Below, piece after piece: positions 2,024 to 63,014 of a stretch of 64,000 nucleotides of DNA. The stretch lies in contig JBBQKJ010000009.1 in assembly GCA_038326775.1 (NCBI GenBank), positions 9,457 to 73,456 of the forward strand, given 5' to 3'. The notes beneath the pieces were generated by a model, which made no database searches, was not told where the DNA came from, and saw only the letters and a list, made by a program, of their open reading frames with translations. Origin of the DNA: Candidatus Geothermincolia bacterium (GTDB lineage Bacteria > Actinomycetota > Geothermincolia > Fen-727 > Anoxymicrobiaceae). Each line of letters opens with the position of its first letter. Position 1 is the first letter of the stretch. The position numbers and the translations under genes are program-made.

Positions 2024-2028
2024 CTTCG

Positions 2029-47102: not shown

Positions 47103-48133
47103 GCCGTCTTTGCCTCCTTGGCTTCAGCCTGCTTGGACTTATCCAGGATGTCCAGTATGTCGATGTTGACCGGGCAGTGGTTGATACAGCGCCCGCAGCC
47201 GACGCAGGCTATCACGTCGAACTTCTCCGGGAAGTACGAGTACTTGTGGCTGATGCGGTTGCGCGTGCGCTCCTTGCGCGTCGGCCTGGGGTTGTGCCCG
47301 GACGTGTGCAGCGAGTACTCGGAGAACATGCAGGTGTCCCACATGCGCGCGCGCCTGGCGTCGAACGCCTCGGCCTCGTCCTGGATGTCGAAGCAGTGGC
47401 AGGTGGGGCACAGGAACGTGCATATCCCGCAGCCCAGGCACCTGTCGGAGAACTGCTCCCAGAACGGGTGGTCGTAGAGCGACGGGAGCTTCTCGGGTAT
47501 GCCGGCGGTGTCGATGGAACGCGCCACCTTCTTCAGGGCGTCCTCACCCTGTTTCGCCGCCGCCTTCGCGTCCGCGTCGCCGGCGGCCTCGAGTCCCGCC
47601 GCCTTCGCGAACTCCTCGCCCTTGTCGGTGAGGGAATTAACGTAGTACGCGTCGCCCAGGTCGAACATGAGGGCGTCCAGCCCCTTCTCTGAAGCCGGCC
47701 CGCCGCCCACCGACGGGCAGAAGCAGTTAGCGCAAGGTTCCGCGCAGGCGAGCCCGACGAGGGTGGTGCCCTCACGGCGCTTCTGGTAGTAGGGGTCCGC
47801 GAAGTCCCACCCGTAGAGGTTGTCCACGATGCTGTAGGCATGCGCGTCACACGGCCTTATCCCGAACACCATCCTCTTCTTGGAGGCATCCGGCACTGAC
47901 GGCTCGACCTCCGTTGAGCCCAGGCGGTACTTGAAGAGCGTCTCGGTCTGGGGGAACATCAGCTCCTTGGGCGGGACGGTGGTGTTATCGTAGTCGAGGC
48001 TGACGTTGGCGGGGTCGGTGACCTCCTTGAACCTCAGCACGTCACCGACCGCAGCCGGCGCGAAGACCTGATACTCTTTGAGACTGGTTAGCACATCTGC
48101 GAGCTTGTCTCTTGCGAACTTGTAATCTCCCAT
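47099..48133 (-). CDS. flxB: 4Fe-4S dicluster protein (FlxB/AsrA-like)
   Basis: PPKELMFP, GIRPCD, CLGCGICTFLCPTCHCF, CVGCGRCINHCP. Confidence 0.85.
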   Translation of the reverse strand: MGDYKFARDKLADVLTSLKEYQVFAPAAVGDVLRFKEVTDPANVSLDYDNTTVPPKELMFPQTETLFKYRLGSTEVEPSVPDASKKRMVFGIRPCDAHAYSIVDNLYGWDFADPYYQKRREGTTLVGLACAEPCANCFCPSVGGGPASEKGLDALMFDLGDAYYVNSLTDKGEEFAKAAGLEAAGDADAKAAAKQGEDALKKVARSIDTAGIPEKLPSLYDHPFWEQFSDRCLGCGICTFLCPTCHCFDIQDEAEAFDARRARMWDTCMFSEYSLHTSGHNPRPTRKERTRNRISHKYSYFPEKFDVIACVGCGRCINHCPVNIDILDILDKSKQAEAKEAKTA

Positions 48134-48142
48134 AGCCTCCAC

Positions 48143-49126
48143 CTACATTATGTATTCTTCGGGGTCCTGCGGGTTGTAGCAGGCGAGCATCGGCTCGGCC
48201 TCGACGTCCACCCCCGGCTCGTACTCGAACATCTCTTTAACGTCACGGGTCATCTTGCGATTGAGCGTCATGATGGGGATGTCCACAGGGCAGACCCGCT
48301 GGCACTCCATGCACTCGATACAGCGCCCCGCCAGGTGCCACGCGCGCTGCACGTGGTAGACGGTGTTCTCGCTGATGTCGGTCGACCGGCGCGTCCACTG
48401 GGGGCGCAGCTTGCTGACCACGCACTCCACGCAGTAGCACATCGGGCAGACGTTCCGGCAGGAGTAGCAGCGGATGCACTTGGAGAACTGCTCATCCCAG
48501 TGCTTCCACTTATCCTCCGGGCTCATCTTCTCGAACTCGTCGACGTCGGCGAAGTCGTCGTCGGCCCACTTCTCGACCTCCTCGCCCAGCAGGAAGTCGC
48601 TCACGAGCGGGTTGGGGTAGCGACAGCGCAGGCACTTGTCCATGAGGATGTTCGACCGGTCAACCGTCTTGACATCGCCGCCGATATCGAGGGCCACCTT
48701 CTCCTTGTCGACCTTCGCGGAGACCTGCGCGCCGGTCTGGCCGAACAGCTTCTCGGCTTTGCGCCGGTCGACGACCCCGAGGCAGGGGATGCCCAGGACG
48801 ACCACGTCCTCACGAGCGTACGCCTTCTCGACGAGCTGCTGGACCACGGCGCGCGAGTCGCAGCCCTTGACCATGACAGCCACCTTGCGGGTGTCAGGCT
48901 CGGCGCCGCGCGGCACCGGCTTCTTTTCCTCGATAGCGATAAACGAGGCCGGGTTCGCGACGCAGGTGGCGTCGAAGATGAGCTGCTCGGCCTGGGAGGC
49001 GTCGGTCACGACCGCGGGAGCGGCTTCGAAGCCGTAGGTGCCCCGCTTCCAGCCGATGAGGCGCCTCACGTCATCGCGTATAAGAGTCTCCCTGGCCTTT
49101 TCCTGGAGTTTTTTCTCGTCTACCAA
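48143..49126 (-). CDS. flxC: 4Fe-4S dicluster protein (FlxC-like)
   Basis: KGCDSRA, CIRCYSCRNVCPMCYC, HLAGRCIECMECQRVCP. Confidence 0.82.
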   Translation of the reverse strand: MVDEKKLQEKARETLIRDDVRRLIGWKRGTYGFEAAPAVVTDASQAEQLIFDATCVANPASFIAIEEKKPVPRGAEPDTRKVAVMVKGCDSRAVVQQLVEKAYAREDVVVLGIPCLGVVDRRKAEKLFGQTGAQVSAKVDKEKVALDIGGDVKTVDRSNILMDKCLRCRYPNPLVSDFLLGEEVEKWADDDFADVDEFEKMSPEDKWKHWDEQFSKCIRCYSCRNVCPMCYCVECVVSKLRPQWTRRSTDISENTVYHVQRAWHLAGRCIECMECQRVCPVDIPIMTLNRKMTRDVKEMFEYEPGVDVEAEPMLACYNPQDPEEYIM

Positions 49127-49551
49127 TTTATCTGCCTCCGTCTGAATTGGTCCATGGGACCCGCTTCCTTGGCCTTGGCAACCGTCTCCTCGACGACGTC
49201 GGCGAACTTGGCGCCCTCGGAGGCGGATACCCAGCTCATGTTGACGCGGCCGGGGTCTACCCCGACGTGCTCCAGGAGCTTGCGCATCAGCATGAATCGG
49301 CGCCTGGCGTAGAAGTTGCCCTCGAGGTAGTGGCAGTCACCCGGGTGGCAGCCCGAGATGAGCACGCCGTCCGCGCCCTGCTGCAGGGCGTTCAGGAGGA
49401 ACAGCGGGTTAACGCGTCCCGAGCACATCACCCTGATTATCTTGACGTTCGGCAGATAACGCATCCTCGAGGTCCCCGCCAGGTCGGCTCCGGCGTACGA
49501 GCACCAGTTGCACAGGAAAGCGACTATGTTGGGCTCGAATTCTTCACTCAT
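49120..49551 (-). CDS. mvhD: MvhD/FlxD [2Fe-2S] subunit
   Basis: FLCNWCSYAGAD, RVMCSGRV, GCHPGDCHY, WVSASEG; ATG overlaps the hdrA stop. Confidence 0.92.
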   Translation of the reverse strand: MSEEFEPNIVAFLCNWCSYAGADLAGTSRMRYLPNVKIIRVMCSGRVNPLFLLNALQQGADGVLISGCHPGDCHYLEGNFYARRRFMLMRKLLEHVGVDPGRVNMSWVSASEGAKFADVVEETVAKAKEAGPMDQFRRRQINW

Positions 49552-51575
49552 TACGGCTTCACTCCTAGTACAGCTATTTGTGGCAGTATCTGTTCGTCCT
49601 TGAAGGACCTGGGCTGTATGGCACCAGACAGACAGGCCGCCGCGCAGCTGCCGCAGCCCTTGCATAGCGCCTCGTTCACAAACGCCACCTGGACTATGTT
49701 GCCCATGCGGTTTTCCTCGACCAGCTCGATGGCGCCGAACGGGCACACCTCCACGCAGAACCCGCAGCCCCGGCATTCATCCGGCGATACCACGGAGACC
49801 ATGGCCTCGACCTTGACCTTCCCGTAAGCCATCAGTATGAGCGCGCTGGAAGCGGCGGCCTTCGCCTGGGCCACAGTATCGGGGATGTCCTTGGGACCCT
49901 GGCAGCATCCGGCGAGGAACACGCCGTCGGAGGCGGTGTCCACGGGGCGCAGCTTGGGGTGGGCCTCGAGGAAGAAGCCGTCGGTGGACTGCGAGAGCTT
50001 GAACAGGTCGATGATCTCGCGGATGTCCTTGCGCGGCTCGAGGCCGACGCCGAGGACGACCATGTCAGCCTCGTATTCCATCGGGGTGCCGGTGAGGGTG
50101 TCCTCGACCTTCACGACCACGGTGTGGTCGTCACCCTTGCGGTAGATCTCCGAGGGGTTGCCGCGCACGTAGCGCACCCCTTCACGCCTCACCCTGTCGT
50201 AGAACTCCTCGAAGCCCTTGCCGAACGCGCGCATGTCCATGTAGAAGACGGTGATCTCGGCCTCGGGCAGCTTGTCGCGGATGAGGTGGGCCTGCTTGGC
50301 CAGGTACATGCAGCACACTCGCGAGCAGTACTCGTTGCCGACCGACTTGTCGCGGGAGCCCACGCAGTGGATGAAGGCCACCTTCTCGGGGAGGTAGCCG
50401 CCCTCGCCCTTCTTGTCGCGGCCGAGGACAGGCTTGCCCCCGGTGGGGCCGGACGAGGACACCAGGCGCTCGAACTCGAGCCCGGTTATCACGTTATCGT
50501 TCTCTGCCCAGCCGTACTCGGGCTTTTTCTCCATGGGGAAAACGTCGAAGCCCGTGGCAACGATGACGGTGCCGATCTCTATCTCGACCATCTCGTCTTC
50601 CTGCTCGAAGTTGATGGCTCCAGGGCCGCACGCGGCCACGCAGGCCGGGCCTTCCTTGCCGCACTTCCCCTTGGACAGTTGCAGGCAACGCTCCGGGTCG
50701 ATGGTGTACTTGGCCGGGACCGCCTGCGGGAACGGCAGGTAAATGGCCCCGCGATTGCCGATAAGCTCGTCGAACTCGCTGGGGATGCGCCCCGCCAGCC
50801 GGCAGTTCTCCGCGCAGACGCCGCAGCCGGTGCACTTATCGAAGTCCACGTAGCGCGCCTTCTTGCGGATCTTGGCCTTGAAGTTACCCACGTAGCCGGA
50901 GATCTCCTCGAGCTGGGAGTAGGTCATGAGCTCGATGTTGGGGTGGTTGGCCACGTCCACCATCTTGGGAGTCAGGATGCAGGCCGAGCAGTCGAGGGTG
51001 GGGAAAGTCTTGTCGAGCTGGGCCATGTGGCCTCCCACAGACGGGGTCTTCTCCACCAGGTACACCTTGAACCCGGCGTCCGCGATATCGAGCGCGGCCT
51101 GGATGCCCGCGATCCCCGCGCCGATGATGAGACAGGAGGGGATGACGTCGACCTCCTTCTCCTCGAGCGCCTCGAGCAGAAGTGCTTTGGCAACGGCGGC
51201 CTCGACCAGTTTCTTGGCCTTCTCGGTAGCCTCGGCGTGGTCCACTGTCACCCAGGAGACCTGCTCTCGGATGTTGGCCATCTCCAGGAAGTAGGGGTTC
51301 AGCCCGGCTTCCCTGATCGCCTTGCGGAATGTCGGCTCGTGCATGCGGGGTGAGCATGAGGCCACGATGACGCGGTTGAGCTTCTCGTTGGCTATGTCTT
51401 CCTTGATCAAGTTCTGGCCCGGGTCCGAGCACATGTAGGTATACTCGCGCGAAACCGCGACCCCGGGCAGCTTCGAGGCGAACTCGACGACCGCCGGCAC
51501 GTCGATAACCGAGGCTATATTGATGCCGCAGTCGCAGACGTACACGCCTATCTTGGGTCTGTAGCTTTCAACCAT
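49551..51575 (-). CDS. hdrA: Heterodisulfide reductase subunit A-like flavoprotein
   Basis: GVYVCDCG, CSPRMHEPTF, ANIREQ, GAGIAGI, DKTFPTLDCSAC, CVGSRD..YCSRVCC, GCCQGPKDI, C-terminal ferredoxin. Confidence 0.95.
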   Translation of the reverse strand: MVESYRPKIGVYVCDCGINIASVIDVPAVVEFASKLPGVAVSREYTYMCSDPGQNLIKEDIANEKLNRVIVASCSPRMHEPTFRKAIREAGLNPYFLEMANIREQVSWVTVDHAEATEKAKKLVEAAVAKALLLEALEEKEVDVIPSCLIIGAGIAGIQAALDIADAGFKVYLVEKTPSVGGHMAQLDKTFPTLDCSACILTPKMVDVANHPNIELMTYSQLEEISGYVGNFKAKIRKKARYVDFDKCTGCGVCAENCRLAGRIPSEFDELIGNRGAIYLPFPQAVPAKYTIDPERCLQLSKGKCGKEGPACVAACGPGAINFEQEDEMVEIEIGTVIVATGFDVFPMEKKPEYGWAENDNVITGLEFERLVSSSGPTGGKPVLGRDKKGEGGYLPEKVAFIHCVGSRDKSVGNEYCSRVCCMYLAKQAHLIRDKLPEAEITVFYMDMRAFGKGFEEFYDRVRREGVRYVRGNPSEIYRKGDDHTVVVKVEDTLTGTPMEYEADMVVLGVGLEPRKDIREIIDLFKLSQSTDGFFLEAHPKLRPVDTASDGVFLAGCCQGPKDIPDTVAQAKAAASSALILMAYGKVKVEAMVSVVSPDECRGCGFCVEVCPFGAIELVEENRMGNIVQVAFVNEALCKGCGSCAAACLSGAIQPRSFKDEQILPQIAVLGVKP

Positions 51576-51598
51576 TTACTCCGGTCCTCCTTGGGCGC

Positions 51599-52561
51599 CT
51601 ACCCCTTCATCTCCTTCAGCTTGTCGATAAGGGCGGGAACCACCTTAAGCAAGTCATCTGCTATTCCGTAGTCCGCGTACTGGAATATGGGGGCGTCCGG
51701 GTCCTTGTTGATGGCAACGACCAGGTCCGCGCCCTTCATCCCGGTCACATGCTGGAACGCGCCGCTGATGCCCAGGGCCAGGTACAACTTGGGCTTCACG
51801 GTCTTGCCCGAGATTCCCACCTGGCGGTCGGCCGGGAGCCAGCCGGCGTCCACAACGGCCCGGCTTCCGGATACGTCCGCTCCGATGAGCCCGGCGAGCT
51901 CCTCGACCATCGGCATGTTCTTGTCCTCGCGGAGACCGCGGCCGACGGAGACGAGCATCGAGGACTGGGTGATGTCAACGTCGCCGACAGGGGGCTGCTC
52001 GTACTCGAGGAATTTGCGGGCGGTCGCCTCCGATGCGACCGGGTTGTCCACTTTCTCGATCGCGCCGGACTTGCCACCCTCCGCGGCCGGGACCGCGCCC
52101 TCGCGGAGCCCGACCACGTACAGCTCGGCGTCCTTGAACTCGATGCGGCCGTTGATCTTGCCGCCGTAATACGCGCGGGTCGCGACCGGCTTGTCGCCCT
52201 CGATGGCCAGGCCGATGATGTCGGAGGTGAACGACGCCCCGAGCTCGAGAGCGAGCGACGCCAGTATGTCGGCGCCCTGGCCGGTGTTCGGGATTATCAC
52301 CAGGTGGGGCTTGTCCTTGTTGATCAGCGCGACCAGGGCAGCCTGGAAGTTGATGGCGTTCCAGTTCGCGAACATCGGGTCGTCGACTACGATGACCCTG
52401 TCCGCGTATGACGCGAGCTTGCCAGCGAAATCGTCCATCCCGCTGCCGAGCAGGACCGCCGTGACCTTGCCTTCGAGCTGGCCGGCGAGAGTCAGCATCT
52501 CCAGGGTGACGTCTCGCAGCTCGCCCTGCCTGTGCTCCGCCAGTACGAATATCTCGTGCAT
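51599..52561 (-). CDS. etfA: Electron transfer flavoprotein alpha subunit
   Basis: SRAVVDAGW, QVGISGKTV.P.LY.ALGISGAFQH, AINKDPDAPIF. Confidence 0.95.
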   Translation of the reverse strand: MHEIFVLAEHRQGELRDVTLEMLTLAGQLEGKVTAVLLGSGMDDFAGKLASYADRVIVVDDPMFANWNAINFQAALVALINKDKPHLVIIPNTGQGADILASLALELGASFTSDIIGLAIEGDKPVATRAYYGGKINGRIEFKDAELYVVGLREGAVPAAEGGKSGAIEKVDNPVASEATARKFLEYEQPPVGDVDITQSSMLVSVGRGLREDKNMPMVEELAGLIGADVSGSRAVVDAGWLPADRQVGISGKTVKPKLYLALGISGAFQHVTGMKGADLVVAINKDPDAPIFQYADYGIADDLLKVVPALIDKLKEMKG

Positions 52562-53359
52562 CTATACCAGCCCCTTTTCCTTGAGTATGCCGGCGAGCTT
52601 GCCCGCGGTCTCACCAGGGTCGCCCTCGAGGATCTCCGCGAGGTCACCAACCACTGGAACCGAGTACTGGACCATCACTGCCACTGAACCGGCCTCGCCG
52701 ACCTGGTCCTCCGAGAGGCCGGTCGCCGCCAGGTCCATGACCTTGATCTCCTTCTTGGAAGCCTCGCGGATGCCTTTGAACGAGGCATAGCGGGGCTCGT
52801 TGCCGCCGGTCTGGATGGTGAGCACGCAGGGCGTGTCGATCTCGTCCATCTCGAGCAGGCCGCCCTCGAGCTCGCGCCCGATTTTCAGCTTGCCCTCGCC
52901 GATGACCTCGACGGTCTTGACGTACGCCGCGTGAGGCACGCCCATCAGGCTTGCCAGCGCCACGCCGACCGCGCCGTAGCCGTCATCGGAAGCCAGGCAT
53001 CCGGTCATCACGATGTCGCAGGACAGGTCCTTGATGGCCGACTGAAGTATGCGGGCAAGGGCCACCGGGTCCGAGCCGGCGAACTTCTCGTCGTCCAGCC
53101 TGATCGCGCCGTCGCCGCCCTTGGCGAGAGCCATTCTGATAACCTGGTTGGCCGCTTCGGACCCAACGTTAACAACCGTTACTTCTCCTTCGTGCTTCTC
53201 CTTGAGCAGGATCGCCTCTTCCACCGCGTAGTTGTCCGCGTCGTTGATCACGAAGCTGAACTTCCCCTGATCAACGCCCTTCCCACTGGAGTCTATGTGG
53301 ACTTCAGTGTCGGGATCGGAAGTGTCCGGCACCTGCTTCACGCAGACCACAATTTTCAT
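52562..53359 (-). CDS. etfB: Electron transfer flavoprotein beta subunit
   Basis: MKIVVCVKQVPD, D.YAVEEA, RELEGG, NEPRY. Confidence 0.95.
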   Translation of the reverse strand: MKIVVCVKQVPDTSDPDTEVHIDSSGKGVDQGKFSFVINDADNYAVEEAILLKEKHEGEVTVVNVGSEAANQVIRMALAKGGDGAIRLDDEKFAGSDPVALARILQSAIKDLSCDIVMTGCLASDDGYGAVGVALASLMGVPHAAYVKTVEVIGEGKLKIGRELEGGLLEMDEIDTPCVLTIQTGGNEPRYASFKGIREASKKEIKVMDLAATGLSEDQVGEAGSVAVMVQYSVPVVGDLAEILEGDPGETAGKLAGILKEKGLV

Positions 53360-53430
53360 ACCCGGTTCACCTCACTTCTTTTCGAGCTGCCTTTACTGGT
53401 CAAATGTCCGATCGTTTCCTTATTCCCCTT

Positions 53431-54564
53431 CTATAGAGCCTCGTCCAGGAGTTCCAGGATGTCCTTTACCTGCATCTCTTCCTCGAAGCCTTTGGCCTTG
53501 ATGGCGTCCTCGATGGTCAGCCAGCAGAACGGGCAGGCCACCGCTATGGTCTGCGCGCCAAGGTCGTGCGCGTCCGCGACACGGGTCTCGGCGAGACGAG
53601 GCGCCTTTGACTCGGACTCTACCCACATCTTGCCGCCGCCGCCTTCGCAGCAGAGGCTGCGCTCCTTTGAGCGGTAAAACTCGGTGAGCTCGACCCCCTT
53701 GATCTTGCCGAGCACGTAGCGCGGCTCGTCGAAGACAAGGTTCTTCTTGCCGAGGTAGCAGGGGTCGTGGAAGACGACCTTCGAGGAGATCTCTTTAGTG
53801 AGCTCCAGCTTGCCGTCCTCGAGCAGCTCGGCGATGAGCTGTGTGTAGTGCTGCACTGGCAGCGCGAGGTTGGTGTACTCGTTCTTGAAGGAGTTGAAGC
53901 AGTGGGGTGAGAGGGTCACCAGGCGCTTGACGTCGTACCGCCCGAAGAGCTCGGTGTTCTCCTCGTCGAAGTACTCGAAAAGGCCTTCCTCGCCGAGCCT
54001 GCGGGCCTCGGAACCGCAGTGCTTCTCCTCCGTGCCGATGAACCCGAAATCGACGCCCGCCGCGTTGAGCACGCGCACGAGCTTCTTCACGATCGGCATG
54101 ATCTTCGGATCGTAGGCGCCGGTGCAGCATATATGCAGCAGCACGTCGGCCTTCTCACCCTCCTCGAGCACGCGGACGTTTTCGAGCCCCTCAGCCCAGT
54201 CCATCCGCTTCGCCGCGGCCTTGCCCCATGGGTTGCCGTTGTTGAACATGCTTTCAAGAGCGGTGATGGCGGTCTGCTCGATGTTGCCCTCTTCGGCCCT
54301 CATGGCCCGGAGGCCGAGCAGGACCTCGAACGGCTCCAGCCCCTTGGGACAGCGGATGGCGCAGGTGTTGCACGTGGTGCAGTCCCAGATGTCAGGACTC
54401 TCGGAGAGCTCCTCGAGCCGGCTGTCGTCAACCGTGTCGTAGACGAAGCGGCGGACGTTGAGGGCGGTGCGCTCAGTGACAGGGCAACCACCGGTGCACC
54501 TGCCGCACTGGATGCAACCCAGGAGGTCGTATTTCTCCACGAAAACTCCGTGTTCAATGCTCAT
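53431..54564 (-). CDS. HdrD-like Fe-S / CCG-domain oxidoreductase
   Basis: CIQCGRCTGGCP, CTTCNTCAIRCP, GNPWG, HDPCYLG, CCEGGG, ACPFC. Confidence 0.88.
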   Translation of the reverse strand: MSIEHGVFVEKYDLLGCIQCGRCTGGCPVTERTALNVRRFVYDTVDDSRLEELSESPDIWDCTTCNTCAIRCPKGLEPFEVLLGLRAMRAEEGNIEQTAITALESMFNNGNPWGKAAAKRMDWAEGLENVRVLEEGEKADVLLHICCTGAYDPKIMPIVKKLVRVLNAAGVDFGFIGTEEKHCGSEARRLGEEGLFEYFDEENTELFGRYDVKRLVTLSPHCFNSFKNEYTNLALPVQHYTQLIAELLEDGKLELTKEISSKVVFHDPCYLGKKNLVFDEPRYVLGKIKGVELTEFYRSKERSLCCEGGGGKMWVESESKAPRLAETRVADAHDLGAQTIAVACPFCWLTIEDAIKAKGFEEEMQVKDILELLDEAL

Positions 54565-54649
54565 CTTCCACTCCATTGTTTGGTTGCTGACATGAATCGG
54601 CGCACCCTGAAGGGGCGCACCGCGACTCACATCCAATTTAAGCCCTTGA

Positions 54650-54679
54650 ATTCTATACACAACTATTTGTAAATTTCAA
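54650..54679 (-). promoter_or_regulatory. Candidate sigma70 promoter of the hdrD-etf-hdrA-flx operon
   Basis: Minus-strand TTGAAA-N18-TAGAAT in an AT-rich island. Confidence 0.45.
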
Positions 54680-54904: not shown

Positions 54905-56233
54905 ATGATGAAGGTTGTCGTTGTCGGGGCCGGACCGGCCGGGCTTGCCGCGACCTACGCTTTAAAGAAGAAGGGCGTCGACGTCGTGACGTTTGAGCGT
55001 TCGGACAACGCCGGCGGGAGGGCTCTTTGCGTCACGAAAGACGGTTTCACCTGTGACATGGGCGCCCAGTTCCTGGGCAAGTTCTATGAAACGACTTTTC
55101 GTTTCTGCGAGGAGCTCGGCATGTCACGGGACATCATCCCGTTCAACTTCAAGGCGGCCACCTGGAGAAACGGGAAGTTCCACGTTATTTCCGACGACAC
55201 GAGCGCGGTCAACCGGCTGAAAGCGCTTCCCGGCCTTTTCACTGGAGTGCCGCCGATGGCGATGCTCCAGGCGGCCAGGATGGGGCCTCGTATCTTGCGC
55301 AGGCTTCCGGCGGTGCTAAAAGTCGATTTCGACAGGTTGCGCGGTGTCGATCACCTGAGTTTTGCCGATTTCGTTTTGAAGTGCGGCGGAAAGGAAGCTC
55401 TGGAGAGCATCTTCCAGCAGTTCTGCGCAGGTTTGACCCTCGGTGAGCCTGAAGATATCGGAACCGCCCATGCGCTCTCTCTTTTCAATTTCGCCAGGGG
55501 CCTTCTCGCCCTCAGGGGCGGTTTCGGATCGCTGACCGACAGGCTGCACGAGGAATGCTCTGACGAGGTGAGGCTCTCCTCACGCGTGAAGAGGGTTGTC
55601 CTCGACGGCAAGGCAGTGAAGGGTGTCGAAACGGATGAGGGCTTTGTCGAAGCGGACGCGGTGATATGCGCCACGACCGCGGGTGTCGCCCGCGACATCA
55701 TCGGCGACCTGCCAGACGGAATGCGTAAAGCGCTCGAAAAGGTGAGATACAGCAAGTGCCGGCACGTATGCTTCTGCCTCGAGGAGCGCCTGCTGCCGCG
55801 CGGTTGGTACGCGGGGGCGATACCGAGAAAGGCCGGATCGTTCCTTCCCGCCATAGTCGACAGCTCCGAGAAATCTCCGGACCACACTCCACGGGGCGCC
55901 GGACAGGTCCATTGCTTCACCTATGGCCGAAAGGCCTCGGAATACGACGATCTGCCTGACGGGAAGCTCGCCGAACTCATGATCGAAGAAGTCAGGAGAT
56001 TCGTTCCGTCGATGCCCGGCAAACCGCTGTTTTATCTGCACTGCCGATGGGACGAGGCGATCTGCCTGGAACCGCCGGGCATGCTGGCCGCGATGGAGGC
56101 TTTGAGGTCGGGGGATTGCGGAAAGGTCGGCGGCTTGTATCTCGCCGGGTCTTACATGCGCCTTCTTTCCTCGGTCGAGGGCTCGCTTCGAAGCGGTGAA
56201 GAAGCCGCCATGGACGCGTTGAGATACTCCTGA
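54905..56233 (+). CDS. FAD-dependent oxidoreductase (amine oxidase / HemY-like), paralogue of 30839-32173
   Basis: GAGPAGLAA, GGR, DMGAQF, LTLGEPEDI, RWDEAICL, SVEGSLRSG. Confidence 0.85.
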   Translation: MMKVVVVGAGPAGLAATYALKKKGVDVVTFERSDNAGGRALCVTKDGFTCDMGAQFLGKFYETTFRFCEELGMSRDIIPFNFKAATWRNGKFHVISDDTSAVNRLKALPGLFTGVPPMAMLQAARMGPRILRRLPAVLKVDFDRLRGVDHLSFADFVLKCGGKEALESIFQQFCAGLTLGEPEDIGTAHALSLFNFARGLLALRGGFGSLTDRLHEECSDEVRLSSRVKRVVLDGKAVKGVETDEGFVEADAVICATTAGVARDIIGDLPDGMRKALEKVRYSKCRHVCFCLEERLLPRGWYAGAIPRKAGSFLPAIVDSSEKSPDHTPRGAGQVHCFTYGRKASEYDDLPDGKLAELMIEEVRRFVPSMPGKPLFYLHCRWDEAICLEPPGMLAAMEALRSGDCGKVGGLYLAGSYMRLLSSVEGSLRSGEEAAMDALRYS

Positions 56234-56318: not shown

Positions 56319-57080
56319 TCACTGGCCCAGGATGCCCCCCAGGATGCCCCCCGCGCCACCGCCGCCGCCCTGCTGGCCTGCCATGCTGGTGGTGGGGGCG
56401 ACCTCGCTCGGCTGGACGATGACGTAGCCCTGCCCCTGGAACACCAGCTGGAAAGTCTCGCCGCTTGTCATCGAACCGAACATGCCCTTCAGGCTCTTCA
56501 GGTTGGCGTCCACGTTCACCGACGGCTCGAGGCCGTAGGACCAGGCGATCGTCGCGTTGGGGTCGGTGTAGGTCGGCGAGTCCGGGGTGACGGTCAGAGC
56601 CATGGGCGTGCCCTTGCTGATGAGCGCCAGGTAGCCGGTGCCCTGGAGCTCCAGCGTCCACAGGCCTCCCGACATCATGCCGGCCGCGCCTTTTATCATC
56701 TTGATGTCCCAGGAGATGCTCGGGGTGAAGGCGAGCAGGTTCAGCGACTCGACCCCGATGGCTTCGTTATCCAGGTACAACAGGATTATGTCGTTGGCCG
56801 CGTCCGCCAGGAACAGGTCGCCCTCCCCGTTGACCTCCATGAGGGTAAACTGCTCGCCGGAGACCTGCTTTTTCAGCCATTTGCCCGCTCCGCCGCCTTT
56901 CTTGGCGAAGTTCATCTGGCCCTGGTAGGCTATCATGGCGCCCGCCTTGGTGAGCACCTGGCCTCCCGCCGCGGCCATGTTGACCTTCAGCAATTTCCCG
57001 TTCTGGAGCACGAAAGCGTCGGGGATGTCGGTCTCCCTGGACTGCTCCAGCAGCGTTGAGAGCATTATTGCCCGTTCCAT
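56319..57080 (-). CDS. AIM24 family protein
   Basis: KAGAMIAYQG, GEGDLFLAD, NLLAF, TDPNATIAWS, SGETFQL.F.GQGYVIVQPSE. Confidence 0.88.
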   Translation of the reverse strand: MERAIMLSTLLEQSRETDIPDAFVLQNGKLLKVNMAAAGGQVLTKAGAMIAYQGQMNFAKKGGGAGKWLKKQVSGEQFTLMEVNGEGDLFLADAANDIILLYLDNEAIGVESLNLLAFTPSISWDIKMIKGAAGMMSGGLWTLELQGTGYLALISKGTPMALTVTPDSPTYTDPNATIAWSYGLEPSVNVDANLKSLKGMFGSMTSGETFQLVFQGQGYVIVQPSEVAPTTSMAGQQGGGGGAGGILGGILGQ

Positions 57081-57156
57081 GTCGCTTCCTCCTGTTCGGC
57101 TGTCGTTTCCAGCTACGGGTGAGTCCGCGGGGAGCGGCCGCGCGAGCAGCACGTCT

Positions 57157-58968
57157 TCAGGGAGCGGCCCCGACGCGGATCTTGACCGCGCTGCCGGCGG
57201 GGGCTTCGCTCAGCGCCGGCGGGTCCTGGCTGATGACCCGCCCCACCCTGGTCGGGTCGGGCGTTGCTTCGCTGATGACCGTGACCGTGAACCCGGCGCT
57301 CACAAGGGCGTTCTCCGCGTCGGCCTTCAACATGCTGACCACGTCGGGCACCTTTGGCGGCGTCTTGGCCACGGTTATGGTCACCTTGGACCCCTTGGGC
57401 GCGGAGTCGCCGCCGGCCGGGGACTGCGAGATGACGCTGCCCTCGGGCACGGTGCTGGAGGCCGCCGTCTGGACCTGCGCCTGCAGGCCCGCGTCAGAGA
57501 GCCTCTGGGTGGCGACTGCCTGGCTCGAACCGACGACATTGGGGACGGTGACCGTCTCCGGCCCCCTGCTGACGACGATGGAGACCGGACTGCCCTTCGA
57601 GGCCTGGGTGCCGGCCTGCGGGTCCTGGGACGAAACGGTCCCCTTGGCGACCGAGGTGCTGTACGCCTCGGTCACGTTCCCGAGCTCGAACCCGGCAGCC
57701 TTCAGTGCACCTTCGGCGTCCGTCCGGGACTGGCCGACGACCTCGGGTACCGCGCCGAGGTTCGGGCCCTTGCTCACCACCACCTCCACCGTTTCGCCCT
57801 TGTCGATTCTGGTCCCCGGGCCCGGGGACTGGCTGATCACGATGTCTTTGGGCTTTTCCGGGTCTATCACCGTTTTGGCGACCTTCATCTTGAGCCCGGC
57901 GTCAGCCAGGACCTGCTGGGCCTCGGTGACGGATTTTCCCATGATGCTCGGGACCGACACGCCCCCGGTGTTCCGCACGATGGCCCAGACGCCCACGCCG
58001 ATACCGGCGAGGATGACTATCACGATGATGGAGATCCAGAGCCAGGCGAGCGAGCGCCTTCCAGGTGGAGCGCCCGCGACCGCGGGATATGCCCGGGTGG
58101 CGCCCGGCGCCGCTTCGTCCCTGGGGAGCACCGGGGTCGCGTACACAGGGGTGCCCTCGAGGGAGCGCTCGAGGTCTCGGCGCATTTCCACGGCGTTCTG
58201 GTAGCGGTTCTGGGGGTTCTTGGCGAGGGCTTTCATGACCACGGCTTCGAGCCCCGGCGAGACATCGGGGTTGATCATCGAGGGAGGAAGGGGGTCTTCC
58301 CGCACGTGTTTGTAGGCTATGGAAACGGGGTTGTCGCCGTCGAAGGGCACCCTGCCCGTGAGCATCTCGTAGAGCACGACCCCGAGAGAGTAGAGGTCGG
58401 AACGCGGGTCAGCGGCGCGGCCCTGGGCCTGTTCGGGGCTTATGTACTGGGCGGTGCCCATGATGGTCCCGGTCTGGGTCATGGCCGAGCCGCCCGCGGT
58501 GCGGGCGATGCCGAAGTCCATGACCTTGGTCTGGTTGTCGTAGGTGACAATGGTGTTCTGCGGCTTTATGTCGCGGTGAACGATGCCCTGGGCGTGGGCC
58601 GCCTCCAGCGCCAGGCAGATGGACATGGCGATCTCGACCGCCCTTTCAGGGAGAAGGGGGCCGCCCTGGAGGATGATGTCCTTGAGGTCGCGCCCCTGGA
58701 CGTATTCCATCACCAGGTAGTAGGTGCCGTCCTCGATGCCCCAGTCGTAGACGTTGACGATATTGGTCTGGTTGAGGTTGGCGGCGGCCTGCGCCTCCTG
58801 GCGGAACCTGGCGATGAACACCTCGTCTTTGGCGAACTGGGGGTGGAGTAGCTTCACCGCGACTGTGCGGCCGAGCAGGTTGTCGCTGGCCCTGTAGACA
58901 TCGGCCATGCCGCCCGTGCCGATCAACTGTTCGAGCTCATACCGGGAATTCAGTATCCTGCCGACCAT
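57157..58968 (-). CDS. pknB: PASTA-domain Ser/Thr protein kinase
   Basis: GTGGMADVY, VAVK, HRDIKPQN, DFGIAR, SPEQA; one TM; four PASTA repeats. Confidence 0.95.
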   Translation of the reverse strand: MVGRILNSRYELEQLIGTGGMADVYRASDNLLGRTVAVKLLHPQFAKDEVFIARFRQEAQAAANLNQTNIVNVYDWGIEDGTYYLVMEYVQGRDLKDIILQGGPLLPERAVEIAMSICLALEAAHAQGIVHRDIKPQNTIVTYDNQTKVMDFGIARTAGGSAMTQTGTIMGTAQYISPEQAQGRAADPRSDLYSLGVVLYEMLTGRVPFDGDNPVSIAYKHVREDPLPPSMINPDVSPGLEAVVMKALAKNPQNRYQNAVEMRRDLERSLEGTPVYATPVLPRDEAAPGATRAYPAVAGAPPGRRSLAWLWISIIVIVILAGIGVGVWAIVRNTGGVSVPSIMGKSVTEAQQVLADAGLKMKVAKTVIDPEKPKDIVISQSPGPGTRIDKGETVEVVVSKGPNLGAVPEVVGQSRTDAEGALKAAGFELGNVTEAYSTSVAKGTVSSQDPQAGTQASKGSPVSIVVSRGPETVTVPNVVGSSQAVATQRLSDAGLQAQVQTAASSTVPEGSVISQSPAGGDSAPKGSKVTITVAKTPPKVPDVVSMLKADAENALVSAGFTVTVISEATPDPTRVGRVISQDPPALSEAPAGSAVKIRVGAAP

Positions 58969-59010: not shown

Positions 59011-59520
59011 TCACCTGGCCTCGAAAAATACCTTCGCCGGGCTGCCGCAGACGGGGCATTTTTCCGGGATGCTGCCGTCGGTGACGTACCCGCACACCTC
59101 GCAGATGTAGTAAGTGGGGTCTTCCTCGGCGAGAAGGTGCTCCAGGGCTTTTTCGTAGAGCTTGGCGTGGACCTCCTCCACATCGCGGGCCCAGGTTAAC
59201 ATCCGGGCGGTGTTCTCGTCTCCGGCCTCTTCGGCCCTGGCTATGAAGTCGCTGTAGTGCACCTGGGCGATCCTGGTCTCCCTCGCGAACGATTCGGACA
59301 GGTTGGTCTCGGTATCCTTGACCTCGCCCAGCAGCCGCAGGTTGTTGCGACCGTGTATCGCCTCAGACTCCGCTATGGCGCGAAAAAGCTTTGCGACGCT
59401 GGCGTAATCCTCCTTGTCCGCGTGTTCCGCGTAGACCTTTAGTCTGACGCTGGCCTTGGCCTCGCCCTCGTATGCCTGGTGCAGACCGTCCTGAATCGAT
59501 TCATCCGCCAAATCATTCAC
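59011..59520 (-). CDS. Rubrerythrin
   Basis: Di-iron ExxH motifs (EAIH, EEVH) and C-terminal rubredoxin CEVC...CPVC. Confidence 0.92.
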   Translation of the reverse strand: MNDLADESIQDGLHQAYEGEAKASVRLKVYAEHADKEDYASVAKLFRAIAESEAIHGRNNLRLLGEVKDTETNLSESFARETRIAQVHYSDFIARAEEAGDENTARMLTWARDVEEVHAKLYEKALEHLLAEEDPTYYICEVCGYVTDGSIPEKCPVCGSPAKVFFEAR

Positions 59521-59540
59521 CCCCGAGCAGTCTTATACGG

Positions 59541-59774
59541 TCAATCCTTCTTTTTCCTGACGTAAACCTTTATCTCGCCCTGGTCCTCCTCGACGGCGAC
59601 GCAATCGTTGCCGGTCTTGTCGCACCAGGCGCGCATGTCGCTCTTGATGCCTGCGTCGTCGGCGATGACCTCGAGGACCTCTCCCGCGGAAAGCTCCTTG
59701 ATGGCCTGGGAGGTCTTGACGATTGGCATCGGGCAGTACAGCCCCACGCAGTCGATCGTGTGGTCCGCTTCCAT
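59541..59774 (-). CDS. tusA: TusA/SirA sulfur carrier
   Basis: IDCVGLYCPMP, LEVIADD, W.DKTGN. Confidence 0.92.
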   Translation of the reverse strand: MEADHTIDCVGLYCPMPIVKTSQAIKELSAGEVLEVIADDAGIKSDMRAWCDKTGNDCVAVEEDQGEIKVYVRKKKD

Positions 59775-59802
59775 GTCACACCTCCGTGGCGGGGCCCGAC
59801 CC

Positions 59803-60282
59803 CTATATGAACAGGTTTACCTTCGCGTCAGAGGCGATGCCAAGGTAGGTGGCGGCCCCGGCGACCTCCTCCACCTCGTCGATGAAGTCATCTTTACTCA
59901 GGCCCATCAACGCCATAGAGGTCGTGCAGGCGATGAACTTTACGCCCTGCTCCCTGGCGAGGGCTATCATCTCCTCGAGCGACGGCATCCGGTACGTCTT
60001 CATCATCGACTTCATGGCGCCGGTCCCCATGCCCAGCATGTTCATTTTGGACATCTTCAACCGCCGGGCGCTCCCGCGCTTCATGAGCCCCATCATCCAC
60101 TGCATGAAGCTCTTGCCGCCCCTGGCCACCCTCTTCTTCTTGATGACGCCGAGCCCCCAGAACGTGAAGAACATGGTGACGTCCATGCCCATGGAGGCGC
60201 CCGTGTTGGCGAGGTTGAACGCGGCCAGCGCCCGGTCCAGGTCGTCGCTGAACACGATAAGGGTCATCTTTTCTTCACTCAT
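59803..60282 (-). CDS. DsrE2-like (DsrE/DsrF/DsrH family) sulfurtransferase
   Basis: FSDDLDRA, MFFTFWGL, IACTTSM.LMG, GAATYL, NLFI. Confidence 0.9.
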   Translation of the reverse strand: MSEEKMTLIVFSDDLDRALAAFNLANTGASMGMDVTMFFTFWGLGVIKKKRVARGGKSFMQWMMGLMKRGSARRLKMSKMNMLGMGTGAMKSMMKTYRMPSLEEMIALAREQGVKFIACTTSMALMGLSKDDFIDEVEEVAGAATYLGIASDAKVNLFI

Positions 60283-60363
60283 GTCACCTCTCCTTGCTCC
60301 TCCGGCGGGTGGGTTGGGAATCGGGTGGCCGCTTTTCCGCCCGAGTGGAGGAGGCCGGCCACG

Positions 60364-60555
60364 TCAGCGCGGAGGCTCCCCGCAGGACGGGCAGGTCTCC
60401 ACCCCTTCCCGCACGGGCTTGCCACAGCGGACGCATTCGATTATCACCGTCTTGCAAGCCACACAGAAGACCGCCTCTTCCCGGACATCTTCTATCTCGA
60501 CGTCGCAGTAAGGGCAGTGGCACGCATCAACCCTTTCTTCGCCTGCTCCTCCCAT
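60364..60555 (-). CDS. Small Cys-rich double zinc-ribbon protein
   Basis: 63 aa with four CxxC pairs (CPYC, CVAC, CVRC, CPSC); starts 2 bp after the iscU stop with a GGAGG RBS. Confidence 0.75.
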   Translation of the reverse strand: MGGAGEERVDACHCPYCDVEIEDVREEAVFCVACKTVIIECVRCGKPVREGVETCPSCGEPPR

Positions 60556-60557
60556 GC

Positions 60558-60956
60558 TCAGCCCTCCTTCGCGGTCTTCTTGCTCTTGTAGTCCTCGATG
60601 GCGATGTGCAGCGCGTCCGCCCCCAGGTTGGAGCAGTGCATCTTGTTTTCGGGCAGCCCGCCGAGCTGCTCCGCGACGTCTCCGCGCGATATCTGAAGGG
60701 CCTCGTCGAGCGTCTTGCCCTTCGCCATCTCGCTCACCATGCTCGAGACCGCGATGGCGGCCCCGCACCCGAACGTCTTGAACTTGACGTCCTCGAGACG
60801 GTCGTCGTCCCCGACCTTGACGTAAAACGTCATCATGTCGCCGCAGACGGGGTTTCCGACCTCGCCTACCCCGTCAGCGTCCTCGATCTCGCCGACGTTG
60901 CGGGGGTTCATGAAGTGGTCCATGACCGTGTCGCTGTACTGCGCTATCTCAACCAC
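60558..60956 (-). CDS. iscU: Fe-S scaffold IscU/NifU-N (MisU-like)
   Basis: DHFMNPRNVG, GNPVCGD, FGCGAAIA, LPENKMHCSNL. Confidence 0.95.
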   Translation of the reverse strand: MVEIAQYSDTVMDHFMNPRNVGEIEDADGVGEVGNPVCGDMMTFYVKVGDDDRLEDVKFKTFGCGAAIAVSSMVSEMAKGKTLDEALQISRGDVAEQLGGLPENKMHCSNLGADALHIAIEDYKSKKTAKEG

Positions 60957-62130
60957 CTCCCTGCTTAAGGAACTTATCGTATAGCGGAGACATCTGCCGC
61001 AGCCTCTCCACTATTGGCGGCAGTGTCTCGATGACATAATCTACGTCCTCGGGCTTGTTGTCGAGCCCGAAGCTGAACAGCAGCGAGCCCTGTGCTATCT
61101 CCGCCGGGATTTCGCAGGCGGTAAGAACGTGCGAGCCCTTGAGCGCGCGCGAAGTGCAGGCTGAGCCGCTCGAGACCGCGATCCCCAGCTGGTCCAGGAA
61201 GAGAAGCATCCCCTCACCTTCTATGAACTCCACCACGAAGCTCGCGTTCCAGGGGAGCCGCTGGTCGGGATGGCCCGTGGCGGTAAGCCTGGGAATGGCC
61301 GCCGGCAGCCTCTCGAGCAGTGCCTGGCTCATAACGCGGAGGTGTTCGGCCCGTCGCTCCATGTCCGTCACGGCGAGCTCGGCCGCTTTGCCCATACCCA
61401 CGATCCCCGGCATGTTCTCAGTGCCACCCCGCCGGCCGCCTTCCTGGACACCTCCGTCCAAGAGCGGCATCAGCCGCCGGCCTTTCTTTACCCAGAGGGC
61501 CCCGACGCCCTTGGGGCCGTAGAGAAGGTCGGAGGCGATCGACATGGCGTCGGCGCCGACGTCCTCGACATCGATCGGAACGCAACCGGCGGCGGCCACC
61601 GCGTCCGTATGGAACGGGATTCCCTTTTCGCCGGCCACCGCGGCTATCTGCCTGACCGGCTGGATAGTCCCGACCTCGCCGTTCGCGACCATCACCGAGA
61701 CCAGCACCGTTTCGGGCGTGATCGCGTCACGCACCGCCTCCGGGTCGACCATCCCGGAGGAGTCCACGGCGACCTCGGTGACCTCCATTCCGAACTTCTC
61801 CAGTGTCCTCGCGGCATGCAGCACCGAGAAGTGCTCAACCGCCGACACCACCACGTGGTTACCTTTCTTCCTGGCGGCCCAGGCGATGCCCTTGACCGCC
61901 AGGTTGTTGGCCTCGGTGCCGCCCGAGGTGAAGATTATCTCCTCGGGCCGGGCCTTGATGAGCGCGGCCACCTTCTCGCGCGCCTCATCGAGGGCCAGCC
62001 TGGCGACGTCTCCCCACCCGTGCAGGGAAGACGGGTTGCCGAAGCTCTCGGTGAAATACGGCCGCATCGCCTCCACGACCTCGTGGAGTACCGGGGTCGC
62101 CGCGTAGTGGTCCAGGTAGACTTCGGGCAT
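60949..62130 (-). CDS. iscS: IscS/NifS-like cysteine desulfurase homologue lacking the PLP lysine
   Basis: GNPSS.H, FTSGGTEANN, EH.SV, SSGSACTS present; the canonical SxHKxYGPKG reads ASDLLYGPKG. Confidence 0.9.
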   Translation of the reverse strand: MPEVYLDHYAATPVLHEVVEAMRPYFTESFGNPSSLHGWGDVARLALDEAREKVAALIKARPEEIIFTSGGTEANNLAVKGIAWAARKKGNHVVVSAVEHFSVLHAARTLEKFGMEVTEVAVDSSGMVDPEAVRDAITPETVLVSVMVANGEVGTIQPVRQIAAVAGEKGIPFHTDAVAAAGCVPIDVEDVGADAMSIASDLLYGPKGVGALWVKKGRRLMPLLDGGVQEGGRRGGTENMPGIVGMGKAAELAVTDMERRAEHLRVMSQALLERLPAAIPRLTATGHPDQRLPWNASFVVEFIEGEGMLLFLDQLGIAVSSGSACTSRALKGSHVLTACEIPAEIAQGSLLFSFGLDNKPEDVDYVIETLPPIVERLRQMSPLYDKFLKQGGG

Positions 62131-62151
62131 TCTTTTTCCTCCAGTCGACCG

Positions 62152-62844
62152 TCAAATGGAATCGAAGTAACCGGCCAGTGCGTCCTGGTCCAGCACCACC
62201 AGGTGCTTGTCCCGGGTCCCCATGATGCCCTCTTTCTTAAGCCGGCTCATAACCCGGGAGACTGTCTCCTCGGTGGAGCCGATGAGCCCGGAGATGTCGC
62301 GGTTCGTGAGCGGGGTGTCGAGCTTCTCGGCGCAGTTCTTGTAGATGCCTCGCTCCTGGTCCAGGGTCTTCATAAGGATGCAGGCCACCCTCTTCTCTAC
62401 CCTCTCGCCCGCGATGCAGCGCGCCTTCATGTACGAGGAGTCGAGTTTCTGCCCGACGAGCTTCAGCAGGTGTCTCTCGAAAGCCGGGTCGGCGGCGATG
62501 ACGGAGAGCAGGTCTTCCCTGGGCACTTTCCAGACCTGGGACTCTTTCCTGGCAACCGCGGAGAACGGGTAGTAGTCCTGGCCGTACGCCACCCCTTCCC
62601 CGAACACGTCCGAGGGGAAGATGAAGTGGAAGATATATACCTTGCCGTCACCGTGGACGACGTTGGCCTCGATGACCCCGGACTCGACGACGTAGAGGAA
62701 AGCGGCCTCATCGCCCTCGAAGAACACGAACTGACCCCGATCGAGGCTCTGAGAAGTGAACCGGTCCTTCAGCTTGCCCCTCAGGTCTTTCCTGGCCTGC
62801 GAGACAAAATCGTCAAGGACGTCATGTTTGACCACTGCTTCCAC
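62152..62844 (-). CDS. Crp/Fnr family transcriptional regulator
   Basis: cNMP-like domain (FFEGD, FGEG), VEKRVA, HTH LTNRDISGLIGSTEETVSR. Confidence 0.92.
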   Translation of the reverse strand: MEAVVKHDVLDDFVSQARKDLRGKLKDRFTSQSLDRGQFVFFEGDEAAFLYVVESGVIEANVVHGDGKVYIFHFIFPSDVFGEGVAYGQDYYPFSAVARKESQVWKVPREDLLSVIAADPAFERHLLKLVGQKLDSSYMKARCIAGERVEKRVACILMKTLDQERGIYKNCAEKLDTPLTNRDISGLIGSTEETVSRVMSRLKKEGIMGTRDKHLVVLDQDALAGYFDSI

Positions 62845-63014
62845 CTTTCCTCACCGGCACCCGCTGCCAACTGCCGTCTTCAGCATATTGTACAACCATC
62901 ACCCCACGCGTCGCGCTCCTGTTTTGCACCTAGCAGGTATCGTTATTCGTTATCGAGGCGCGAAATCATCTTTTCTACGCCGGTGGACGCCTTTAGCATG
63001 GAAGGCACGTTGAG

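Follow-up and report, generated by a model that had tools for sequence, protein, structure and literature searches.

The 64,000-nucleotide stretch of DNA analysed here, from the anaerobic actinobacterium Candidatus Geothermincolia bacterium (contig JBBQKJ010000009.1; hereafter the window), carries, on the minus strand between positions 59011 and 62844, a seven-gene operon built around an IscS homologue that lacks the lysine used by catalytic relatives to hold pyridoxal 5'-phosphate (PLP). We denote this protein IscS*. Its gene is accompanied by those for the scaffold IscU and for two sulfur carriers of the TusA and DsrE2 types, and such carriers proved to be linked to nearly all lysine-less IscS genes examined across bacteria and archaea. 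In the order of the genes from the regulator onwards, the features of the locus are as follows.

62887..62892, minus strand: TACAAT, a -10-like word 43 nt 5' of the crp start; a weakly supported candidate for the operon promoter
62152..62844, minus strand: Crp/Fnr-family regulator, 230 aa (Pfam cNMP_binding and HTH_Crp_2)
60949..62130, minus strand: IscS*, a class-V aminotransferase-fold IscS/NifS homologue (PF00266, E 4.6e-75, full-length)
60558..60956, minus strand: IscU scaffold, 132 aa (PF01592, E 8e-51)
60364..60555, minus strand: double zinc ribbon (ZnR), 63 aa, ATG at 60555 (Pfam DZR and Zn_ribbon)
59803..60282, minus strand: DsrE2-like sulfur carrier, 159 aa (PF13686, E 6e-53, 179 bits)
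59541..59774, minus strand: TusA-family sulfur carrier, 77 aa (PF01206, E 1.8e-25)
59011..59520, minus strand: short rubrerythrin, 169 aa (PF02915 and PF21349)

The first-pass annotation of this DNA had described seven co-oriented genes with gaps of about 80 bp or less, and this layout is confirmed: from crp to the rubrerythrin gene the junctions measure 21 nt, an 8-nt overlap of the iscU start with the iscS* stop, 2 nt between the iscU stop and ZnR, 81 nt (the largest gap), 28 nt and 20 nt. The gene identities given there also hold, with Pfam and NCBIfam in agreement for all seven. Of the 25 Actinomycetota loci of the window type, 19 show the complete set in unchanged order and the other six are cut by contig ends; such an arrangement is far beyond chance. 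The nearest relatives of the locus lie in metagenome-assembled genomes (MAGs) labelled Actinomycetota, 'Candidatus Anoxymicrobiaceae', Solincola and Geothermincola.

In IscS*, the PLP lysine is replaced by Leu202, the pocket glutamine by Ala179 and an arginine invariant in the lysine-bearing homologues by Leu351; the surrounding motif reads Ala-Ser-Asp-Leu as compared with Ser-x-His-Lys in catalytic homologues, the histidine beside the lysine having also given way to aspartate. The cofactor pocket retains His100, Asp176 and Thr237, and the mobile-loop Cys325 is present in the motif SSGSACTS. The alignment of the family thus bears out an earlier description of a lysine-less IscS with its loop cysteine, and adds the glutamine and arginine losses to it. 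This alignment covers the loci of our first sample (see below) and holds 123 IscS-family open reading frames (ORFs) of at least 300 aa out of 127 hidden Markov model (HMM) hits, four shorter fragments having been dropped (among them those of L043 and L054; loci are cited by our own handles). Just three columns, those of Gln179, Lys202 and Arg351, split its 48 lysine-bearing from its 75 lysine-less members. The lysine is found in 48/48 of the former; the latter, by definition 0/75, carry Gln (30), Leu (21), Asp (9), Glu (5), Met (4) or other residues instead. The pocket glutamine is present in 46/48 lysine-bearing proteins and is alanine in 67/75 lysine-less ones, and the Arg351 column, which we take to correspond to the substrate-carboxylate Arg354 of Escherichia coli IscS, holds arginine in 48/48 and 0/75, respectively. 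Among the same 75 proteins the loop cysteine is kept in 74 (the remaining row is gapped), His100 in 74 and Asp176 in all. Judged from these columns, the residue loss is coordinated and ancient, and no sequencing error. Because the PLP lysine, the pocket glutamine and the otherwise invariant arginine are all gone, IscS* is probably unable to form a persulfide from cysteine, and analogy to the Archaeoglobus fulgidus enzyme discussed below likewise suggests that desulfurase activity has been lost. IscS* falls below the NCBIfam cut-offs for both NifS (488.6 against 530.75 bits) and IscS (359.8 against 643.2 bits). Its PDB matches are the 9WEP series, which is the best, and A. fulgidus IscS2 (4EB5, E 3.6e-112). 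The entries 9WEP, 9WER, 9WEW, 9WF8, 9WFB, 9WFE and 9WFY form a variant series of a 406-aa 'cysteine desulfurase', in which 9WFY has leucine at the lysine position together with further pocket changes; a literature search for a paper on codes 9WEP, 9WFY, 9WEW and 9WER returned none relevant. As a separate observation on the pocket glutamine, a WOR-3 locus (L116, G160:C17, 5995-8428, minus strand) holds tandem lysine-bearing IscS genes with alanine at this position.

Both carriers have the residues expected of persulfide-carrying proteins, as had been noted from the window alone: the CPxP cysteine of TusA, Cys14, is conserved in 62/63 homologues (a second cysteine, Cys9, in 51/63), and the cysteine of the DsrE2-like protein in 42/43. 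TusA scores 89 bits against PF01206 (cut-off 28.6) and has 1PAV and E. coli TusA (3LVJ) as PDB matches; its score of 51.5 bits against the NCBIfam TusA equivalog is under the 78 bits required, so the window protein is not an equivalog of the E. coli one. Similarly, the second carrier reaches 91.5 bits against the NCBIfam DsrE2 equivalog with its cut-off of 210 and is best called DsrE2-like; the closest solved DsrE-type structure is 3PNX, matched over the full length with an E value of 1e-25.

The linkage of these carriers to IscS was examined in two samples. The first comprised 80 related loci from genome contigs (72 lysine-less and 8 lysine-bearing), to which control regions were added: 20 surrounding further IscS homologues in Actinomycetota genomes, 20 with paralogues in 15 cassette genomes of other phyla, and two more from Actinomycetota. 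Carriers were sought with HMMs built iteratively from the window's own proteins, a carrier being counted as linked when TusA and/or DsrE2 lay within 2.5 kb on the same strand, and a locus was called evaluable if it had at least 2 kb on both flanks or if a carrier was found. Carriers were present at 63 of 68 evaluable lysine-less loci (TusA at 59, DsrE2 at 40, both at 36) and at 1 of 40 evaluable lysine-bearing ones, which corresponds to a Fisher p of 1e-22, a value that overstates the evidence because the linkage reduces to one to three independent events. IscU is adjacent at 60/68 lysine-less loci. The single lysine-bearing exception is L128 (G020:C11, 4662-8419, minus strand), in which a lysine-bearing IscS gene immediately precedes a lysine-less cassette of the order IscS-IscU::ZnR-DsrE2-TusA; nowhere else are the two IscS types neighbours, and the arrangement raises the possibility that the carriers are supplied by a catalytic desulfurase. 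Because the HMMs were derived from cassette proteins, the controls were checked with Pfam as well: of 152 small ORFs situated up to 2.5 kb from a lysine-bearing gene or from one of the five lysine-less genes without a carrier, 150 were scanned, and TusA or DsrE domains appeared only at L128, the usual neighbours being Rrf2 regulators and IscU. In a Nitrospirota MAG (L127, G163:C46, 3859-4194, minus strand) a DsrC-like gene was also seen about 1.8 kb from a divergent lysine-bearing IscS gene.

For the second sample, 151 Halobacteriota genomes were searched with the lysine-less protein of L036, and the best 30 loci were taken with 1.5 kb flanks; among these, a TusA and/or DsrE gene was found at 21/22 lysine-less loci and 0/8 lysine-bearing loci. 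Over both samples, which hold 153 IscS-family genes, a carrier accompanies 84/90 evaluable lysine-less genes compared with 1/48 lysine-bearing ones; dsrE2 and tusA are not equally linked to lysine-containing IscS. In the 25 genomes that encode both IscS types, the carriers adjoin the lysine-less gene only, except at L128. At least ten phylum-level groups share the synteny, with Actinomycetota, Chloroflexota, Nitrospirota, Aminicenantes, Elusimicrobiota, WOR-3, Thermodesulfobacteriota, Halobacteriota and Asgard archaea among them, and the gene order varies. The carriers are downstream in Actinomycetota, Chloroflexota and Elusimicrobiota and upstream in Nitrospirota and Archaea, and DsrE is sometimes absent: the order is IscS*-IscU-ZnR-DsrE2-TusA in Actinomycetota, some Chloroflexota and Elusimicrobiota, IscS*-IscU-ZnR-TusA in Dehalococcoidia, Rrf2-TusA-IscS*-IscU in Nitrospirota, IscS*-DsrE2-TusA in WOR-3 and one Thermodesulfobacteriota MAG, and TusA-DsrE-IscS*-IscU in Archaea.

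The three cysteines and the aspartate of IscU are present, these columns being conserved in 80-83 of 84 homologues, and its NCBIfam NifU_clost score of 200 bits exceeds the cut-off of 187.9. The small ZnR protein that follows has eight invariant cysteines, arranged as four CxxC pairs, and one near-invariant cysteine in an alignment of 38 sequences; its ATG is backed by a methionine at the matching column in many relatives. In nine loci (L039, which is partial, L044, L045, L046, L048, L049, L052, L058 and L128) ZnR forms the C-terminal domain of IscU, and because of this fusion, a Rosetta-stone type of evidence, ZnR probably acts together with IscU. An AlphaFold2 model of ZnR reached a pLDDT (predicted local distance difference test) score of 71 and gave no PDB match at E <= 0.001, just generic zinc-knuckle and rubredoxin-like fragments; because the model lacks a significant fold match, neither iron nor zinc can be assigned to it. 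Another kind of appendage is found in a Methanoperedens MAG (L051, 7228-9022, plus strand), where a lysine-less IscS gene is followed first by a gene that joins IscU to a thioredoxin-reductase-like flavoprotein (444 aa) and then by one for a flavodoxin. In Solincola/Geothermincola-type loci, a gene for a DUF255 (Thioredox_DsbH) protein of about 600 aa stands between crp and iscS* (L016, 4212-6017; L038, 4176-5999; plus strand). An electron-supplying appendage on IscU may be what persulfide-derived sulfur would require.

The core of this cassette has published relatives. Pagnier et al. (2015) reportedly describe, as their title has it, an A. fulgidus IscS without desulfurase activity. According to excerpts of two further reports, this IscS is inactive as a desulfurase and provides a ligand to the cluster on IscU, and the sulfur source and the formation of the cluster on IscS-IscU are called an open question there (PMC8918507, PMC7585200); the A. 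fulgidus protein binds pyridoxamine 5'-phosphate (PMP) or PLP non-covalently without the lysine, and its D199K variant still held PMP (PMC8918507, in part). The A. fulgidus IscS2-IscU pair (4EB5, 4EB7 and 4HVK; D199K, 4R5F) shares with the window operon the IscS fold without a PLP lysine, the loop cysteine and the adjacent IscU. It differs in that its lysine is replaced by aspartate, as in a separate archaeal-type clade, whereas the window protein has leucine at this position and belongs to a bacterial clade. The window operon apparently also adds ZnR, rubrerythrin and Crp, and it has its carriers downstream. In L137, a close relative of 4EB5 (580 bits), a TusA gene abuts directly upstream. 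A lysine-less IscS is also known from Methanosarcina acetivorans, as IscS1, in the portion of PMC7585200 consulted; this lysine-less IscS-IscU pair, isc1 (IscS1 MA0808 and IscU1 MA0807), is thus published, and four genes of its cluster are neither named nor studied in that portion. In a Methanosarcinales MAG (L036), a DsrE gene abuts the lysine-less IscS gene. The first-pass annotation had called the operon a candidate new system, which does not hold for its core; the linkage of carriers to lysine-less IscS-IscU was not found in full-text literature searches, the coverage of which does not extend to subscription journals.

Other systems share single elements with the operon. The minimal ISC system MIS (MisS-MisU), described in excerpts of PMC12192291 as carrier-less and ancestral, shares with it a core of two genes, IscS- and IscU-like, that includes neither chaperones nor A-type carriers; in contrast to MIS, the desulfurase residues of the window IscS* are gone and genes for persulfide carriers are its fixed partners. 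E. coli IscS-TusA (3LVJ) and the SufS-SufE/SufU pairs resemble it in that the CPxP cysteine of a TusA-family protein is placed beside the loop cysteine of an IscS-family protein; the protected transfer of persulfide is an established principle. In the E. coli IscS-TusA and SufS relays the PLP enzyme is the donor, whereas in the window operon the carrier would have to be the donor, IscS* being presumably unable to act as one. Relays of the Rhd-TusA-DsrE2 and DsrE3-TusA types, known from the work of the Dahl and Jiang laboratories, feed dissimilatory sulfur oxidation. They likewise pair TusA with a DsrE-family protein bearing a conserved cysteine; the partners of the window carriers are instead IscS* and IscU.

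We consider it somewhat better than an even chance that TusA and DsrE2 pass sulfane sulfur to the IscS*-IscU scaffold, which would make the operon a relay-fed auxiliary line of iron-sulfur (Fe-S) assembly; this proposal is drawn from residues, fusions and neighbourhoods. In such a line IscS* would most likely be a structural partner of IscU that lends its loop cysteine to the nascent cluster, as in the A. fulgidus protein. DsrE2 and TusA would bring in sulfane sulfur as persulfide on their conserved cysteines, from which it would move on to the loop cysteine of IscS* and to IscU. ZnR would serve as an IscU accessory and may be a rubredoxin-like metal centre giving electrons for the reduction of persulfide to sulfide, while rubrerythrin might guard the process from peroxide or assist it in some other way, and the Crp-family regulator with its three invariant cysteines would control the operon in this lineage.

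Several observations weigh against this proposal. Among the evaluable lysine-less loci of the first sample, L042, L044, L048, L052 and L119 have no carrier in range; L044 does have a TusA-DsrE2 pair, 4.4 kb upstream and on the opposite strand, and L119 (G157:C4, 5926-7215, minus strand) is a second Thorarchaeota IscS paralogue on a very long branch, with its lysine changed to arginine and His100 to threonine, an adjacent IscU and no carriers. L154 of the second sample is a further lysine-less locus without a carrier, within its 1.5 kb flank only. In WOR-3 and some Thermodesulfobacteriota loci, IscS* is accompanied by DsrE2-TusA and has no adjacent IscU, and because of such loci a general role in sulfur trafficking fits as well as Fe-S assembly. 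The retention of His100 and Asp176, together with the non-covalent PMP/PLP binding of the A. fulgidus protein, leaves a slight possibility of cofactor-dependent activity. Moreover, the lysine has been lost only a few times, in one to three origins. In a FastTree tree of the IscS family, made with the trait columns removed, a well-supported bacterial lysine-less clade holds 64 rows, the window protein among them; an archaeal-type clade with lysine changed to aspartate, also well supported, holds 10 rows and includes one sequence each from WOR-3, Desulfatiglandales and Coriobacteriia; and the third lysine-less placement is one long-branch singleton. The two clades are separate in this tree and may be sisters, the minimum number of state changes is 3, and the independent pairs, 1 on supported branches and 3 on all branches, are too few for any test. 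The data therefore show long retention of the linkage through deep divergence and rearrangement, and not repeated origin.

The proposed relay leaves room for more than one source of sulfur. Inorganic sulfide or polysulfide as the ultimate source is possible, at well under even odds in our view. Cysteine may still be the source, because 25 of the 26 cassette genomes examined for paralogues also encode a lysine-bearing IscS/NifS homologue (the exception being the Thorarchaeota genome G157) and because in L128 such a gene directly precedes the cassette; the operon may thus not be independent of cysteine, and the supply of the carriers with cysteine sulfur by the genome's separate lysine-bearing desulfurase, which L128 makes plausible, seems to us only slightly less likely than an inorganic source. 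The boldest extension of the proposal, a complete cysteine-independent route widespread in anaerobes and leading from inorganic sulfur through DsrE2/TusA persulfide and the loop cysteine of a dead IscS to IscU, is possible at best. Along that route, reduction on IscU would be carried out by a built-in donor, ZnR here and the thioredoxin-reductase-like fusion elsewhere, and a thiol-sensing Crp and rubrerythrin would tie the pathway to redox stress in this lineage.

The genes at the two ends of the operon bear on whether sulfur might instead flow in the opposite direction. The rubrerythrin is predicted to combine a diiron four-helix domain (PF02915) with a C-terminal rubredoxin-like domain (PF21349), both above cut-off. 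A rubrerythrin gene is found on the same strand at a distance of up to 3 kb in 34/68 lysine-less loci (Actinomycetota, 21/25; Chloroflexota, 5/8; Aminicenantes, 3/4; and others) compared with 0/40 lysine-bearing ones. The regulator has cysteines only at positions 143, 155 and 171, all three invariant in 22/22 orthologues; as it lacks the N-terminal cysteine cluster with which Fnr binds [4Fe-4S], it is not Fnr proper, and its scores against all NCBIfam Crp/Fnr equivalogs are far under the cut-offs. The crp gene is confined to Actinomycetota cassettes (19/25), being directly upstream of iscS* (within 200 nt) in 11 loci and 2-3 kb upstream in Solincola-type loci. An IscR-like Rrf2 regulator is found at 9/68 lysine-less loci, all of them Nitrospirota-type cassettes, and at 10/40 lysine-bearing loci. 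The first-pass suggestion of a stress-responsive repair module is tentative at most, the recurrent rubrerythrin and the cysteine-bearing Crp being the only features in the sequences that point to it. A related alternative would have IscS*-IscU take up damaged or surplus clusters and hand their sulfur, as persulfide, from the loop cysteine to TusA and DsrE2 to be re-used or detoxified; the operon would then be a salvage, repair or clean-up device under oxidative stress and would have no biosynthetic role. The distribution of rubrerythrin would suit this, as would Crp cysteines capable of sensing oxidation, and in E. coli the flow is known to run from IscS to TusA (PMC13066941, as excerpted). 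We nevertheless judge it improbable, since the Nitrospirota-type cassettes stand under IscR-like Rrf2 as in ordinary biosynthetic operons, the reductant modules fused to IscU fit the reduction of persulfide during assembly, and no precedent for salvage was found in the parts of the literature consulted.

The carriers could also be brought together for purposes other than cluster assembly, with IscS* as an adaptor that docks TusA and DsrE2 for the thiolation of tRNA, molybdopterin or another thio-cofactor and IscU as a neighbour by descent. L065, L072, L073, L079 and L064, in which IscS* is found with DsrE2 and/or TusA and without an adjacent IscU, would be explained in this way, as would the fact that TusA, at 59/68 loci, is the most constant partner; E. 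coli TusA serves the thiolation of both tRNA and the molybdenum cofactor (in the same portion of PMC13066941). This explanation appears quite unlikely to us, as IscU is the immediate neighbour at most lysine-less loci and IscU itself can carry ZnR as a fused domain, an IscS without desulfurase activity would have no evident sulfur of its own to donate, and Pfam scans of the neighbours contained no MnmA, ThiI or MoaD/MoeB genes.

It is very unlikely that IscS* retains desulfurase activity, through non-covalently held PLP or PMP or another nucleophile, with TusA and DsrE2 as ordinary acceptors downstream. The partly preserved pocket, in which His100, Asp176 and Thr237 are kept, does fit the lysine-independent PMP/PLP binding reported for A. 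fulgidus IscS (PMC8918507, in part); however, that protein is reported to be inactive (PMC7585200, as excerpted), its D199K variant still held PMP, and an arginine invariant in the 48 lysine-bearing proteins is absent from all 75 lysine-less ones. That the carriers merely ride along by shared descent from one ancestral gene order, as the small number of countable origins might allow, is scarcely credible, given that the linkage spans these many phylum-level groups even though genes have been reordered, DsrE has come and gone and the regulators differ, and that other neighbours (PknB, AIM24 and AlkD) have been lost outside the closest family.

As for expression, a TAnAAT-like word is aligned by eye with the position of the TACAAT in about 7 of 11 close relatives. 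A scan for consensus promoters gave none upstream of crp and one for consensus terminators gave no minus-strand terminator inside the operon, with counts at shuffle level in both cases, and no shared perfect palindrome that could be a Crp box was present upstream of crp in 21 loci. In the metatranscriptome X20, contigs from a relative are 88-97% alike to the operon, and single contigs span the pknB/rbr, tusA/dsrE2, dsrE2/ZnR/iscU and iscU/iscS* junctions; these contigs are a weak hint of expression, as the library may hold DNA and contigs cannot prove a single transcript. A bin upstream of crp that lacks cover is given no meaning here. The co-oriented run extends past the seven genes. A PASTA Ser/Thr kinase gene (PknB, 57157-58968, minus strand) begins 42 nt downstream of the rubrerythrin gene and is followed after 4 nt by an AIM24-like gene (56319-57152, minus strand), and read-through transcription into these two genes is possible; upstream, an AlkD-like gene ends 170 nt from the operon. 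PknB, AIM24 and AlkD were considered as operon parts and dropped, because their conservation is limited to the closest family.

The cassette is not the sole Fe-S machinery of the organism. Other genes of the assembly (114 contigs, 95% complete) specify a lysine-bearing NifS/IscS (C2, at the end of the contig), a class-V protein of the EF2568 type (C33), one SufB/D-like protein and a second NifU_N protein. The genome also has a second TusA-domain gene, which was not taken as part of the system because it is a YedF-like TusA-DsrE fusion between selD and selA; this selenium-metabolism cluster, selD - YedF-like TusA::DsrE fusion - selA, is found at 492-3186 on the plus strand of another contig (L130, G000:C34). 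Elsewhere in the window, the following minus-strand genes form a block at 47099-54660.

53431-54660, minus strand: HdrBC-like CCG protein
51599-53359, minus strand: EtfBA
49551-51575, minus strand: HdrA-like protein
49120-49776, minus strand: MvhD/FlpD
47099-49126, minus strand: ferredoxin-type genes (two 4Fe-4S proteins)

By its content, this block resembles an electron-bifurcation-type cluster of the Hdr-Etf kind more than it does a classical Flx-Hdr. The idea that the IscS* module serves a nearby Hdr-Flx complex finds no footing here, as 4.3 kb and three unrelated genes lie between the two and the cluster is absent from the related loci examined. The window further contains paralogous amine-oxidase-family flavoproteins of 442-444 aa (30839-32173, minus strand, and 54905-56233, plus strand) and two large proteins that contain DUF5719, one of which also has a TIG domain (32304-34697 and 39871-42045, both minus strand).

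Since lysine-less IscS has TusA and DsrE proteins as near-obligate genomic partners, these become concrete, testable candidates for sulfur donors; the bacterial variant found in the window adds three testable parts, namely the ZnR with its occasional fusion to IscU, the rubrerythrin that recurs beside the cassette and the cysteine-bearing Crp. If the sulfur source were inorganic, the cassette would stand beside SMS as a second Fe-S pathway independent of cysteine. A cysteine-independent route of this kind, if true, would explain the sulfur supply of the Archaeoglobus-type IscS-IscU and would extend the ancestral MIS, which is supposed to lack a carrier, by sulfur carriers as fixed partners.

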